NCBI GenBank assembly: GCA_027296925.1
Contig: JAPUIP010000270.1
Span: 1 to 44,750 of the forward strand
DNA: 44,750 nt
Direction of reading: 5' to 3'
From: Candidatus Poribacteria bacterium
Lineage (GTDB): Bacteria > Poribacteria > WGA-4E > PCPOR2b
This document shows positions 25,502 to 35,888 of this stretch, in pieces. Each line of letters starts with the position of its first letter. Position 1 is the stretch's first letter. A model generated the notes under the pieces. The model saw only the letters and a list, made by a program, of their open reading frames with translations. It was not told the origin of the DNA and did not search any database. The translations under genes were made by a program, and so were the position numbers.

Positions 25502-27547
25502 ATGGCAGACGCAAAGATACTGGTTGTTGAAGATGAGCCTACCGTCGCTGAGTTCACGGAAATCCTGTTGGAAACCTTAGGATATACCGTTTCTGCGGTC
25601 GTCCCTTCTGGAGAGGAAGCAATTCAAAAAGCAGCCGAGACAAATCCTGACTTAGCGTTGATAGATATGATGTTGGATGGGAATATGGACGGTATCGCAG
25701 TCGCCGAACAGATGCGAGATCGTTTTGATATTCCGGTCGTTTATCTGACAGGCCACGCGGATGAGGAGCTATTGCAACGCGCAAAGATCACCGCGCCATT
25801 TGGCTATATCCTCAAACCGTTCGAGGAGAGAAGATTACACTTGAACATCGAAATTGCCCTTTACCGGCATGAAATGGAAAAAAAATTCAAAGAGAGCGAA
25901 CAGTGGCTCTCCACAATCCTCAAAAGTATCGGCGACGCCGTGATTGCCACGGATAAGAATGGGTGCGTCACATTTGTGAATCCCGTTGCCGAAGCATTGA
26001 CAGGTTGGAGACAGGAAGAGGTCTTTGGTAAAGATTTGGCTGAAGTCCTCAATGTCATTCGTGACGGCACACGTATTCCGATCAAAAACCATATTATGAA
26101 GGCCCTGCAGCAGGAAATCGTTGCCGGCCAGACGGAACATATCATCCTCATTGCCAGAGACGGCAGGGAAATCCCCATTGATTACAATGCTACACCCATC
26201 AGAGACGGCAAAGAAAACATCACGGGCGTCGTTTTGGCCTTCCGTAATATCACGAAGCGGAAGCAGGTTGAGCAGCGGTTGACGCACACCGCGGAAGCCT
26301 TGCGAAATCAGGCCCGAATTTTGCAATCTATTCTTGACAGCATTGGCGATGGCGTCATCGTTGCGCAAAAAAACGGGGAGTTTTTGCTCTTTAACCCGGA
26401 TGCAGAACGTATTATTGGTATCGGACCAACGGATGTGCCTCCCGACGAATGGGTTGAAGCATACGGCATGTTTCTGCCGGATACGGTGACACCTTTTCCG
26501 ACAGATGAACATCCACTCATACGGGCAATCCATGGCAAGGCGTCAGATGATGTCGAGATGTTTATACGTAATCCGCAAGTACCAGAGGGTGTCTACATCA
26601 GTGTTACCGGCCGCCCCCTACAAGATGAGTCGGGGGTGTTATGGGGCGGCGTTGTCGTTTTCCGCGATATTACTGACCGACAGCGAGCGGAAGAAGCGTT
26701 GGCTCAAGCCTACACACAGGGACGCCTAGAGGTGGTCGATGCGATACTCCACAATATTGGTAATGCGATCAACAGTGTAACGATAGGCATCGGGACGATC
26801 TACGAAAATCTCGTGAGTAATAAACTGACACGCCGCCTCGTGGCTCTGGCAAATGCCATCAAAGGACATCAAGACGATTTTAGCAGCTACGTCAAGAACG
26901 ACCCGGAAGGGCCAAAAGTCGCGCCGTTTATTCAGGCACTCGCTCAGGATTTTATCAAACAAGATGAAAAATTAGCGAAAACAGTCAATCGTGTGCAGGA
27001 TCGGGCAGAACACATCGCTGACATTGTCCGAATGCAAAAGTCGCTTGGCAGACGGAGTGTCTACCGCAAAGATATCGCCCTCAGAAAAACAATCGATGAT
27101 ACCATTACCGTGTTGGGTGATTCCATCAGAGGGAGAGATATTCAGATTCACATCGATTGCGGTAACGCTCCAAAAACGATTCGAACACAGGAGAGTCAAT
27201 TTCATCAGATGTTGGTCAATCTGGTCAAAAATTCGATTGAAGCCATTGACGAACTTTCTGTATGCGTGGGGCTCAATCAAGTGCCATCGATCAAAATCCG
27301 CTGCTATGTTGAATTAGATTCGCTCATCCTTGAAGTGACCGATAATGGTATCGGCATCGAAGCGGACAAATTCGGGGTCATCTTTGGCGGGGATTATACA
27401 ACGAAGAAATCTGGTAGCGGGCTTGGGCTACATTCGATAGCGACTTTCGTCCAGAGCTGGGGCGGAGAAATTGCCCCAATAAGCGGCGGCATTGGCAAAG
27501 GTGTCACCATGCGAGTCAGGCTACCGCTTTCTTCAGTCACCCCATGA
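25502..27547 (+). CDS. cytoplasmic sensor histidine kinase, REC-PAS-PAS-HisKA-HATPase
   Basis: N-terminal receiver (ILVVEDEP...LALIDMML). Two PAS domains (ILKSIGDAVIATDKNG, ILDSIGDGVIVAQKNG). H-box AILHNIGNAINSV, N-box LVNLVKNSIEAI, G-boxes TDNGIGI and GSGLGLHS. No TM segment. Confidence 0.9.
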   Translation: MADAKILVVEDEPTVAEFTEILLETLGYTVSAVVPSGEEAIQKAAETNPDLALIDMMLDGNMDGIAVAEQMRDRFDIPVVYLTGHADEELLQRAKITAPFGYILKPFEERRLHLNIEIALYRHEMEKKFKESEQWLSTILKSIGDAVIATDKNGCVTFVNPVAEALTGWRQEEVFGKDLAEVLNVIRDGTRIPIKNHIMKALQQEIVAGQTEHIILIARDGREIPIDYNATPIRDGKENITGVVLAFRNITKRKQVEQRLTHTAEALRNQARILQSILDSIGDGVIVAQKNGEFLLFNPDAERIIGIGPTDVPPDEWVEAYGMFLPDTVTPFPTDEHPLIRAIHGKASDDVEMFIRNPQVPEGVYISVTGRPLQDESGVLWGGVVVFRDITDRQRAEEALAQAYTQGRLEVVDAILHNIGNAINSVTIGIGTIYENLVSNKLTRRLVALANAIKGHQDDFSSYVKNDPEGPKVAPFIQALAQDFIKQDEKLAKTVNRVQDRAEHIADIVRMQKSLGRRSVYRKDIALRKTIDDTITVLGDSIRGRDIQIHIDCGNAPKTIRTQESQFHQMLVNLVKNSIEAIDELSVCVGLNQVPSIKIRCYVELDSLILEVTDNGIGIEADKFGVIFGGDYTTKKSGSGLGLHSIATFVQSWGGEIAPISGGIGKGVTMRVRLPLSSVTP

Positions 27548-27577
27548 AGACATGGTTTCTAACAACGGAGAGGTTTT

Positions 27578-33802: not shown

Positions 33803-33821
33803 ATGAGAGGAAAGTAACACC

Positions 33822-35888
33822 ATGATCGAACGAAGTGTTCAAAAACAACGATGGATAAGCTTAGCACTGTTTATCATAATGGTATGCGCATGCACACCAC
33901 TTTTCGCCGGCGGTCGAAATGCCGGTCGTAGCATCAAAGCAAAATGGCTGGATGAACCGCCCGTTATTGATGGCGCGCTCTCGGAGGGCGTGTGGCAAAA
34001 GGCTGAGATCGCCACCAATTTTTTCCGTGCAGAAGGCGCTCGTGGCGTCCCCGCAACATTGAATACCAAAGCGATGGTCTTGTACGATGCAAACACGCTC
34101 TATGTTGGGGTGTATTGCGATGAACCGAATATGAACGCCCTCCGTGAAACGCAAACCCGTCGTGATGCCCCCGTTTGGCAGGATGACATGGTTCAGGTGC
34201 TGCTCGACACCTATCACGATCAGCGCAACTGTTACGTTCTGGCGGTGAATACGTTGGGAACGCAGATGGATGCGAAAATCGGCAACGAGAGCAATTTCGA
34301 TCAGGCGTGGGATGCGAAGTGGGATGCGAAGGTCAAAAAGAATGGAAACCACTGGACAGCGGAAATGGCCATCCCGTTCAGCGAACTCCGTTTTAATCCC
34401 CAAACGACGACATGGGGAATCAACTTTGCGAGATCGCATCCGATGGAAGGTACACGGTATTCGTGGTCAGATATGGGAGATGACTTTAGTCGGGTTTCAG
34501 CGTTTGGCGAGCTCGCGAATCTGGATTTCAGTAAAGTGAATACGGATCGAAAGATTGGCATTCTTCCTTACGTCACCCAACGCGCCGTGGAAAACGAACC
34601 GAGCAATACCAGCACCGGCGTGGACCTTGCCATCCCATTCTCGACAAACATCACCACAAACCTGACTTTCAACCCCGATTTTTCACAACTGGAGAGCGAT
34701 TCGACTCGAATCAATGTGTCGAGTAATCAGGAGTTGTATCTGCCGGAGCGACGCCCATTTTTCCGAGAAGGGGCAGATCTGTTTGAACTACCGCTAGATC
34801 TGTTTTACACGCGCCGGGTTCAAGAGATTGATTACGGTGTAAAATCGACGGGAAAGGTTGGCGACTACAACTTTGCCCTCATCGATACGTACGGGACGAT
34901 GGTTGACCGCTACGACGACGACCAGAAGAAGCAAGCAAATCTCTTTGCGGCGCGAGTCAACCGAAACATCGGCGAGCGAACGGTAATCGGCGTGATGGGG
35001 ATTCAGAAGCATCAGTCAGATCGCGATGTGACATTGCTCTCGCTGGATGGGCGGTTCCCCCTGCATCGTAACTTAACAGCTCGATCGCAATATGTGATGG
35101 ACTGGATTGATGGCGAGATGCACGGAGCATACCACGCCTCGATGGGCTGGCGGCATGAAAGCGGCTGGGGCGCAGATGTCCGGGTGGAAGAGATTCAAGA
35201 CGGCTTTCGTCCCAATGAAACCGGCCTCGAAGATGAGGCGTTCCGCAAGACATTTGGCCGCGTGCGGTACAGGCATCAGTTCGATAAAGGAAGCCTCATT
35301 CGAGGATTTCACGCAAGCGGCTATCACCTCTACAAAGTGAATGGACAGAATCTGTTATGGGCTCGGCGCGTTGGATTATCCGGCGGGGTTGATATTGGGA
35401 AATTTAATCTGTACACCTTTGGTGGGACCGGAGTACGACGGGAAGATGGCGCGCTTTACGACAGGCAATACATCGGTTCAGATATTAGCTACCGCCCCAA
35501 ATGGGGACGTTTATCGCTTTTCAATCGATTTGGCCCGCGTCAGAACAAATTCAGCCGGTTCACGCGGATCTCCGCCGATGTCAACCTCTTTGGCAAACTC
35601 ACCTTCAACATGAACGCGAGCAATTTCTTCTGGCGTGAAAACCAAAATACGTTCATCGTCGGTGTTAACGTCAACTACCAATTTATGCGGCAGATGGGCT
35701 GGCGAATCTTCGTGGAACGGATAGACGAGCGTCTTGAAAACGAAGTCAAGTACAATTTCAATTCCGTCTTTGATTACGCGTTCACCCCGGAAAGTCGCGT
35801 CTTCCTGGTCTTCGCCGATGGCACGGACGGCAACCGCGCGGTATTCACTAAAATGTCCTACCTGTTTGAATCGGATCTTCTGTTTTGA
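33822..35888 (+). CDS. CBM9-like / DUF5916-like outer-membrane beta-barrel protein
   Basis: Signal peptide ISLALFIIMVCACTPLFAGG. N-terminal WLDEPPVIDGALSEGVWQKAE...VLYDANTLYVGVYC is typical of the CBM9-type domain. A long beta-rich C-terminal region ends ...FESDLLF (terminal aromatic). Sits 19 nt after the ABC gene. Confidence 0.7.
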   Translation: MIERSVQKQRWISLALFIIMVCACTPLFAGGRNAGRSIKAKWLDEPPVIDGALSEGVWQKAEIATNFFRAEGARGVPATLNTKAMVLYDANTLYVGVYCDEPNMNALRETQTRRDAPVWQDDMVQVLLDTYHDQRNCYVLAVNTLGTQMDAKIGNESNFDQAWDAKWDAKVKKNGNHWTAEMAIPFSELRFNPQTTTWGINFARSHPMEGTRYSWSDMGDDFSRVSAFGELANLDFSKVNTDRKIGILPYVTQRAVENEPSNTSTGVDLAIPFSTNITTNLTFNPDFSQLESDSTRINVSSNQELYLPERRPFFREGADLFELPLDLFYTRRVQEIDYGVKSTGKVGDYNFALIDTYGTMVDRYDDDQKKQANLFAARVNRNIGERTVIGVMGIQKHQSDRDVTLLSLDGRFPLHRNLTARSQYVMDWIDGEMHGAYHASMGWRHESGWGADVRVEEIQDGFRPNETGLEDEAFRKTFGRVRYRHQFDKGSLIRGFHASGYHLYKVNGQNLLWARRVGLSGGVDIGKFNLYTFGGTGVRREDGALYDRQYIGSDISYRPKWGRLSLFNRFGPRQNKFSRFTRISADVNLFGKLTFNMNASNFFWRENQNTFIVGVNVNYQFMRQMGWRIFVERIDERLENEVKYNFNSVFDYAFTPESRVFLVFADGTDGNRAVFTKMSYLFESDLLF

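Follow-up and report, generated by a model that had tools for sequence, protein, structure and literature searches.

We analysed a 44,750-nt contig of Candidatus Poribacteria (referred to here as the window), in which a block of five genes at positions 25502-35888, all on the + strand, encodes a soluble histidine kinase, a sigma-54 activator, a 364 amino acid (aa) cytosolic protein, an ATP-binding cassette (ABC) exporter with a periplasmic insertion, and an outer membrane barrel protein with a CBM9-like domain. Taken as a whole, the block might represent a signal-controlled envelope export operon of apparently sponge-associated Poribacteria, a reading that we put forward tentatively and to which we give slightly less than an even chance. 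It draws on the conserved order of the last three genes in related genomes, on a sigma-54 promoter and activator sites that are conserved upstream of them, and on the domain content and folds of the encoded proteins.

A preliminary description made from the sequence alone had already listed five + strand genes in this order, and the map of open reading frames (ORFs) together with Pfam and NCBIfam domain scans confirmed the genes and their positions. The reported gaps of 30 nt between kinase and activator and of 19 nt between ABC exporter and barrel gene were likewise correct. The 356-bp gene-free region of that description corresponds to the stretch upstream of the promoter, and the whole spacer between activator and 364-aa protein measures 752 bp (29507-30258). 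The block is flanked on both sides by genes on the opposite strand: that of a methyltransferase precedes it, and small ORFs and an oxidoreductase gene follow. Domain scans found no adaptor, TolC, Lpt, Lol or Wza gene within 25502-35888, in agreement with the preliminary description.

Conservation of the gene order across genomes

With one genome scanned for each species, we obtained 43 Poribacteria loci encoding the family of the 364-aa protein. Among these were 29 species-level loci whose ABC exporter carried the insertion, and 10 loci without insertion that had usable flanks. In every locus inspected, comprising the 43 poribacterial ones as well as loci from Armatimonadota and other metagenome loci, the ABC gene directly followed the gene of the 364-aa protein. 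Insertion-bearing Poribacteria showed the order 364-aa protein, ABC exporter, barrel, with an intact barrel gene in 25 of 29 genomes, a decayed one in two and none in the remaining two; the barrel gene was found in none of the 10 loci without insertion. The trio is therefore syntenic outside the window, in the same 25 genomes, where a complete lack of such synteny had been named as grounds for abandoning the idea. The trio is nevertheless not the basic unit, as its co-inheritance is confined to one lineage; the ancient unit, universal in Poribacteria and shared by several phyla, is the pair of 364-aa protein and ABC exporter.

Homologs of the 364-aa protein were 39-47% identical in pelagic Poribacteria and 31-34% in more distant metagenome loci, and a profile search additionally retrieved Armatimonadota-type loci with the pair. 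The ABC exporters linked to these distant homologs shared 51-53% identity with the pump of the block (the focal pump), compared with 35-39% for another, MsbA-like pump of the window, and the linked exporters therefore belong to one orthologous subfamily. Barrel, ABC insertion and sigma-54 control are, as judged from this distribution, add-ons of one lineage to the older pair. The loci without insertion include metagenome-assembled genomes (MAGs) named NP41, SP142, SAT10 and OC6_3000m, which point by name to ocean water and the deep sea. Free-living Pelagiporibacteria have been distinguished from sponge-associated Entoporibacteria (PMC8546597). The insertion-bearing lineage apparently corresponds to sponge-associated Poribacteria, and the loci without insertion fit Pelagiporibacteria.

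Three Armatimonadota-type loci (L057, 8001-13004; L058, 6477-13969; L059, 6560-14132) shared a cluster of a SpoIIE-like phosphatase, the 364-aa family protein, the ABC exporter and a polytopic DUF5693 protein of about 660 aa, located beside mraZ, rsmH and a penicillin-binding protein gene. In L058 and L059 the gene of a polysaccharide pyruvyl transferase comes directly after DUF5693; in L057 it is found some 5 kb upstream, on the other strand. The transferase of L058 is a CsaB equivalog (TIGR03609, 281.6 bits against a cut-off of 213.1). In diderm Terrabacteria, SLH proteins are anchored by secondary wall polymers, which CsaB pyruvylates (bioRxiv 10.1101/2021.05.31.446380). The Armatimonadota-type cluster is a candidate wall-polymer export locus, which would give DUF5693 a context. 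Yet another setting was seen in L004 (8027-13852) and also in L005 and L006, where a DUF6785/DUF6784 membrane protein is encoded before the pair and a 280-aa PD40 beta-propeller after it.

The kinase, the activator and the sigma-54 promoter

The first gene of the block (25502-27547, +) encodes a soluble histidine kinase of 681 aa, in which Pfam identified a receiver domain (Response_reg, 6-116), two PAS domains and HATPase_c (563-677), and which also has an H-box region; its C-terminal half is AtoS-like (181 bits, NCBIfam). The second gene (27578-29506, +) encodes a sigma-54 enhancer-binding protein of 642 aa with REC, PAS, AAA+ and Fis-type helix-turn-helix (HTH) domains, including Sigma54_activat at 321-487 (E 4e-73), AAA_lid_14 and HTH_8 (6e-16) by Pfam, and its translation shows the GAFTGA loop and the Walker A motif GESGTGKE. 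A scan for hydrophobic segments found no such or transmembrane segment in the kinase, the activator or the 364-aa protein. Both regulators were thus as initially described, a soluble REC-PAS-PAS kinase and a REC-PAS-AAA+(GAFTGA)-HTH activator. The activator reached no NCBIfam equivalog, its best match being AtoC with 398 bits against a cut-off of 714.

Kinase orthologs with 62-75% identity occupied the same position in 12 of the 29 insertion-bearing genomes. The pair of kinase and activator was adjacent to the trio in just these 12 of 29 loci, and in the other 17 neither was encoded within 8 kb upstream. The contiguity of regulators and trio therefore holds for the window and for 12 related loci and not for the lineage at large.

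The spacer between activator and 364-aa protein contains, 356 bp from its start, a sigma-54 (-24/-12) promoter TGGCACGGGGCTTGCT at 29863-29878 (+), with transcription predicted to start near 29889. No other site of the window matches TGGCAC-N5-TTGCW exactly; about 0.08 matches would be expected by chance, and 8 of 100 shuffles give one. The perfect TGGCACG-N4-TTGCT element of the preliminary description was found at exactly this site. The same exact consensus gave no match in related loci. A relaxed scan recovered TGGCAC-N5-NTGC upstream of the first gene of the trio in all 29 loci with insertion, and the form TGGCAC-N5-(A/T)TGC was mostly located 116-177 nt before the start codon. In an alignment, the promoter of the window was the positional homolog of TGGCAC-N5-ATGC in five related loci. 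The -24 GG and -12 GC elements stand at the exact spacing, upstream of a gene under presumptive regulation, and we judged the promoter to be real because it is conserved across related loci. Among the 10 loci without insertion and with usable flanks only one, L050, had the motif. A further locus, L029 (1150-4147), encodes an activator and has the sigma-54 motif but lacks the insertion; here the contig breaks off too early for a barrel gene to be visible.

Two conserved blocks upstream of the promoter are predicted activator sites. Site 1 (29645-29679, +), about 200-218 bp before the promoter and near-invariant in the alignment, consists of TGTTGCAAAATGTATC followed by the palindrome GTTGCAATGTGCAAC at 29663-29677. 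This palindrome, which bears out the earlier mention of palindromes in the gene-free region, follows the pattern GTTGCA-N3-TGCAAC. In 22 related loci, some of them without adjacent kinase and activator, it recurs 185-219 bp ahead of the promoter. Site 2 is TGTCGCATTTTGTAAC (29754-29769, +), about 109 bp before the promoter; its motif, TGTCACATTTTGAAAC and variants, is almost invariant and lies 105-116 bp before the promoter in related loci. The three-repeat subclade, whose activator is 68-69% identical, has the invariant promoter GTTGGCACACTTTATGCT but a different conserved upstream block. The upstream sites are conserved within each subclade with their spacing to the promoter kept, and promoter and upstream sites are also kept in the 17 genomes without adjacent kinase and activator. 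By this conservation the upstream blocks are putative activator sites, and the sequence evidence for a predicted activation of the sigma-54 promoter by the two regulators is strong.

The promoter is followed by a long 5' leader of about 380 nt (29879-30258, +), in which the alignment showed an insertion of about 280 nt (~29885-30165) followed by the ribosome binding site GGAG. Among the aligned loci this insertion occurs in the window alone, and no copy of it was found elsewhere. It holds an ORF of 47 aa (29903-30046) and two TGGCAT look-alikes without GG-N10-GC, and Rfam gave no match in the leader. A second sigma-54-like site at 9060-9075 (-), the sole near-match in the window, was dismissed as chance as it has one mismatch and no gene downstream. 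In many bacteria PspA/IM30 is dependent on sigma-54 and PspF. The window encodes a PspA/IM30 gene at 6880-7596 (+), upstream of which no -24/-12 match was seen. We found no treatment of sigma-54 in Poribacteria in the searched literature, and the sole paper containing both terms (PMC9860564) deals with a Janthinobacterium sponge pathogen and not with this operon.

The 364-aa protein

The gene of the 364-aa cytosolic protein, here termed the helper, extends from its ATG at 30259 to 31353 (+). Searches against Pfam, NCBIfam and PDB sequences returned nothing at threshold. An AlphaFold2 model (predicted local distance difference test, pLDDT, 85; predicted template modelling score, pTM, 0.82) showed an alpha/beta domain and a helical domain, and Foldseek matched this model to AziU3/U2 (E 5e-8), CcbD (5e-5) and CtaG (2.5e-4), each with a probability of 1.0. 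Matches to PCAT1 were much weaker (E 0.009-0.09). The protein accordingly has the two-domain BtrH_N/DUF4872 fold (Foldseek E 5e-8 to 1e-3, TM-score ~0.45-0.55), with a papain-like BtrH_N-type domain at 1-~195 and a DUF4872-like helical domain at 196-364. This fold was recognised by structure search only: BtrH_N scored 15.2 bits against a gathering threshold of 29.7 (E 0.026), with 17 of 25 homologs giving weak matches, and DUF4872 was seen solely in a remote fused relative, again below the cut-off (21.5 against 28). The early characterisation of the protein as cytoplasmic and of unknown function therefore stands as far as location, absence of transmembrane segments and lack of threshold matches are concerned, but its fold is recognisable.

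No invariant Cys, His or Asp was present in the alignment of the family, and hence no catalytic triad. The column of the nucleophile expected at the start of helix 1, placed by alignment and secondary structure of the model rather than by residue-level superposition, is occupied by Tyr in the protein of the window and by Cys just in two homologs, P0064 and P0065. In the helper proteins of the L004 type, a Cys is kept at the expected position of the papain nucleophile. Invariant residues of the family are E42, R45, N63, R66 and E148, and its C-terminus SEKMKM is conserved. An exhaustive profile search yielded 471 representative remote relatives of the helper domain. In some of these the domain is extracytoplasmic and fused to a BamD-like TPR with lipoprotein signal, to DUF362, or to anti-sigma zf-HC2/FecR modules (e.g. 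P0215, P0218, P0221, P0230 and P0258), which suggests that it is a widespread, as yet unnamed binding module. Given the absence of the triad and this pattern of fusions, a binding module fits better than an enzyme, and from this we infer that the 364-aa protein is a non-catalytic accessory subunit of the ABC pump.

Helper and pump genes are separated by a spacer of 208 nt (31354-31561, +) with two GGGGAGG/CCTCCCC hairpins and no T-tract, in which no terminator-like site was called. It is about 120 nt longer than in the closest relative, L014, and the extra stretch carries the two hairpins, which may be an RNA-stability element or a small repeat element. A small precursor peptide encoded in this spacer or in the leader was considered and rejected: ORFs are present, but without conservation from one locus to the next, and the spacers are insertions specific to lineages.

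The ABC pump and its periplasmic insertion

The fourth gene (31562-33802, +) encodes an ABCB-type (type IV) half-transporter of 746 aa with the Pfam domains ABC_membrane and ABC_tran. The initial label of an MsbA-type exporter is appropriate for the fold class. As an MsbA equivalog the protein does not qualify, since its best NCBIfam model, TIGR02203, was matched with 526.9 bits against a cut-off of 602; among PDB sequences Sav1866 (402 bits) outscored MsbA (349 bits). A canonical MsbA would be expected to have about 580 aa and to be the sole such pump of its genome, whereas the focal pump has 746 aa with its insertion and shares the window with a second one. This second MsbA-like pump (13322-15055, +; 577 aa) is 42% identical to the focal pump, scores 504 bits with TIGR02203, also below the cut-off, and is located about 2.7 kb from a lipopolysaccharide heptosyltransferase II gene (9569-10642, -) that passes its own cut-off. 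With a pump of canonical length at this position, the focal pump need not be the lipid A flippase, for which the second pump is the better candidate. We therefore ruled out MsbA orthology of the focal pump by score, architecture and the paralog in the window.

The insertion, described beforehand as a duplicated stretch of about 160 aa, was found to comprise about 155 aa (~aa 48-205; coding region 31703-32176, +) in two modules of about 60 aa each, located between transmembrane helix 1 (~15-39) and transmembrane helix 2 (~210-242) as delimited by alignments and transmembrane prediction. In type IV exporters the loop between these helices is periplasmic. The module is present in one copy in L014 (9189-11216), in two copies in the window and most loci, and in three copies in L008, L027, L037 and others; pelagic and distant pumps lack the insertion in the alignments. 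The number of repeats in this arm thus spans 0-3 among close relatives (0 in L029, 1 in L014). No relative of the module was found in Pfam or among PDB sequences.

The barrel protein

The last gene (33822-35888, +) encodes a protein of 688 aa with a signal peptide, a CBM9-like sandwich (~aa 37-232) and a DUF5916 barrel (~aa 245-688) ending in ESDLLF, which bears out the preliminary description of a CBM9-like head and a DUF5916-like barrel with terminal LLF. Both Pfam matches exceeded their thresholds (CBM9_1 at 49-231 with 50.9 bits against 23.4; DUF5916 with 51.2 against 22.6); the DUF5916 match spans profile positions 8-95 of 572 only, and homologs are annotated alike. An N-terminal hydrophobic signal (10-32), about 24 long strands in the model and a C-terminal Phe identify the protein as an outer membrane barrel. 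In the AlphaFold2 model (pLDDT 74.7) a signal helix and a beta-sandwich are followed by these strands. Foldseek matched the sandwich to the CBM9 structure 7nwn (E 1e-8); the similarity of the strands to PirA, TonB-dependent receptors, LptD and FimD, with TM-scores of 0.3-0.37, is a generic one to large barrels. In the searched literature we found no mention of DUF5916, DUF5693 or CBM9 outer membrane proteins.

Another surface-related gene of the window lies 22 kb from the block and encodes a Wzi-like capsule-assembly outer membrane protein (PF14052, E 1.8e-28) at 1232-2908 (-). It adjoins a gene for a 436-aa protein (2912-4222, -) without family match.

Comparison with known regulatory and export systems

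The regulatory part of the block resembles NtrC-family systems such as AtoSC and ZraSR, in which the kinase gene also adjoins that of a REC-AAA+-HTH activator and the activator sites are located 100-220 bp from a -24/-12 promoter. Unlike in these systems, the poribacterial kinase is soluble with an N-terminal receiver domain, the activator includes an additional PAS domain, no match to an equivalog was obtained, and the target operon is new.

In PCAT1 and HlyB exporters, too, a papain-fold cytosolic domain works with a type IV ABC exporter. The 364-aa protein resembles the C39-like domain of HlyB in its missing catalytic residues, which suggests substrate handling and not cleavage. The differences are that the domain is here a separate protein, encoded upstream and with BtrH_N/DUF4872 architecture, that the pump has a periplasmic insertion, and that genes for a membrane-fusion protein, TolC or a double-glycine substrate are missing. 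With BtrH, CtaG, CcbD and AziU3/U2 the 364-aa protein shares the overall two-domain fold. It differs from them by near-zero sequence similarity, by the lack of the triad and of a carrier-protein partner, and by being always paired with an ABC exporter instead of being part of a biosynthetic cluster.

In concept the arrangement is also similar to the Lpt pathway (LptB2FGC-LptA-LptDE), in which an inner membrane ABC machine is linked to a large barrel with an N-terminal beta-sandwich. Unlike there, the pump is a type IV half-transporter and not type VI LptFG, the bridge would be the pump's own insertion, and the barrel belongs to DUF5916 and not to LptD. Pfam and NCBIfam scans found no LptA, LptC, LptE, LptF or LptG jellyroll and no LptD-LptE domains in any gene of the block. 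A last likeness is to CsaB secondary cell-wall polymer loci, in that the distant orthologs of the pair adjoin CsaB and DUF5693 near the division and cell wall (dcw) cluster and the barrel has a CBM9-like domain. Known ABC-dependent glycan exporters (Wzm/Wzt or TagGH, paired with Wza or with no barrel) differ from this combination of type IV pump and DUF5916 barrel. The preliminary statement that the trio maps to no described pathway was upheld insofar as the genes could not be assigned to MsbA, PCAT/HlyB, Lpt or catalytic BtrH systems and the arrangement was not found in the searched literature; it needs correction for the 364-aa protein, whose fold has known relatives. The operon appears to encode a so far undescribed pathway to the cell surface.

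Proposed mechanism and alternative explanations

In our working model the soluble REC-PAS-PAS kinase would phosphorylate the REC-PAS-AAA+ activator, which would then occupy both conserved sites upstream (about -200 and -109), opening the sigma-54 promoter at 29863-29878, so that one transcript spans the three downstream genes. The 364-aa protein, whose papain-like fold would have lost its triad or never had it, might recruit the substrate or gate the pump, and the dedicated ABCB-type homodimeric exporter would carry the cargo over the inner membrane. The co-inheritance of helper and pump is strong support for a joint inner membrane step, in which we infer direct contact of the two proteins. 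One lineage would then have gained the periplasmic arm of the pump, with its 1-3 modules, together with the downstream gene for the ~24-strand barrel and its CBM9-like sandwich. Arm and sandwich would meet in the periplasm, where the cargo would be handed to the barrel and so reach the surface. The cargo is probably glycan-bearing, e.g. a lipid-linked glycan or a polysaccharide; we favoured this kind of envelope component because of the CBM9 fold and the CsaB/dcw context of the distant orthologs, and it is the weakest link of the model.

Several observations weigh against this model. The glycan argument takes the name of a fold together with a gene context from another phylum, and neither a glycosyltransferase nor CsaB is encoded next to the operon in the Poribacteria loci. 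The termini of outer membrane barrels are normally periplasmic, and we placed the CBM9-like domain in the periplasm for this reason; its side is thus an assumption. Helper and pump genes are 208 nt apart, with two hairpins in between, so that the single transcript is no more than a presumption. rpoN is not encoded within the 44.7-kb window. The joint pattern of insertion and barrel is suggestive rather than statistical proof, since a single ancestral event could explain the counts. Most of the remaining points concern the barrel itself and lead to an alternative that we consider improbable, though it ranks highest among those weighed here: the pair alone would be functional, the insertion would sense or bind the cell wall or something similar, and the barrel would be an unrelated outer membrane protein, e.g. 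a carbohydrate uptake porin, that merely shares the operon. The DUF5916 family is large and broad and its members mostly stand alone, including those at 46-49% identity and, at 58%, the paralog P0111 of a Poribacteria contig of 6.5 Mb. A 68% homolog (P0091), from an assembly with a longest contig of equal length, suggests that the genome of this lone paralog also holds a pump-linked copy, and the pump-linked barrels are a distinct ortholog with 62-84% identity. In 4 of the 29 genomes the insertion is kept and the barrel gene is lost or broken, being frameshifted in L039 (11856-14020), reduced to a 77-aa remnant in L032 (6932-7162) and absent in L026 and L033; this reflects either ongoing gene loss or MAG errors. 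The pair also occurs without barrel gene in pelagic Poribacteria and other phyla. An unrelated barrel would, on the other hand, have to be reconciled with the 19-nt gap and a gene order that 25 of 29 genomes keep throughout the range of protein identity, and with the finding that insertion, barrel and sigma-54 promoter share one lineage and that no barrel follows a pump without insertion.

The other alternatives assign the cargo to a known class. An exporter of peptides or proteins, of the PCAT or type I secretion kind, would use the 364-aa protein as a C39-like domain in trans that holds the unfolded substrate, as does the catalytically dead C39-like domain of HlyB. Such a system would be compatible with a papain-like fold without catalytic Cys, with the weak Foldseek matches to PCAT1 and with the 425 bits that the focal pump reached on HlyB-family profiles. 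This score is far below the cut-off of 725, however, by structure the protein is closest to BtrH-type enzymes with two domains and not to C39 domains, and no fused C39 domain is present. Neither the span in the window nor the related loci encode a membrane-fusion protein or TolC, and the small ORF between the two genes is found in some loci only and is not a conserved precursor gene, so that we regard peptide export as rather unlikely. Still less probable, in our view, is a lipid route in which the pump would be the flippase for lipid A or another lipid, equivalent to MsbA, and the barrel would insert the lipid into the outer membrane like LptD. MsbA_lipidA was indeed the best NCBIfam model of the pump, Foldseek gave generic matches between barrel and LptD, and the N-terminal beta-sandwich recalls the LptD jellyroll. 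These resemblances are offset by the subthreshold score and the better match to Sav1866, by the second pump of canonical length near the heptosyltransferase II gene, by TM-scores to LptD of just ~0.3, and by conditional sigma-54 control, which would be odd for an essential flippase. An equally low probability is given to the 364-aa protein being an active transacylase or ligase of the BtrH, CtaG or CcbD kind, making a small metabolite that the pump exports. Its closest solved structures, AziU3/U2, CcbD and CtaG, are those of such a group, and CtaG is referred to as a papain-like amide ligase (PMC12865890). Enzymatic activity is difficult to reconcile with a Cys/His/Asp triad that is conserved neither in the family nor among the 471 sampled remote representatives, with a BtrH_N score of 15 bits against a cut-off of 29.7, and with the absence of carrier-protein, NRPS (non-ribosomal peptide synthetase) or adenylation genes from all loci.

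Implications for Poribacteria

In its most far-reaching form, the export operon would be a new trans-envelope exporter. A type IV pump would dock via its own arm of 1-3 repeats on the CBM9-like domain of a 24-strand barrel, with no membrane-fusion protein, TolC or Lpt-like bridge, and would be loaded by a dedicated pseudo-protease subunit, a companion of this ABC subfamily from a time before Poribacteria and Armatimonadota diverged. It would deliver a surface glycoconjugate of the sponge symbiont under sigma-54 control, possibly for host interaction. Held together in all its parts this is improbable, considerably less probable than the export operon as such.

If true, the operon would reveal a new accessory-subunit principle, i.e. 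a stand-alone, catalytically silent papain-fold protein that is inherited with an ABC exporter across phyla, and a new mode of spanning the periplasm, in which the repeat arm is built into the pump. It would also provide a first functional handle on the large families DUF5916 and DUF5693. Barrel, arm and sigma-54 switch were found in the apparently sponge-associated and not in the pelagic Poribacteria, which makes the operon a candidate for a symbiosis-related surface trait in this uncultivated phylum.

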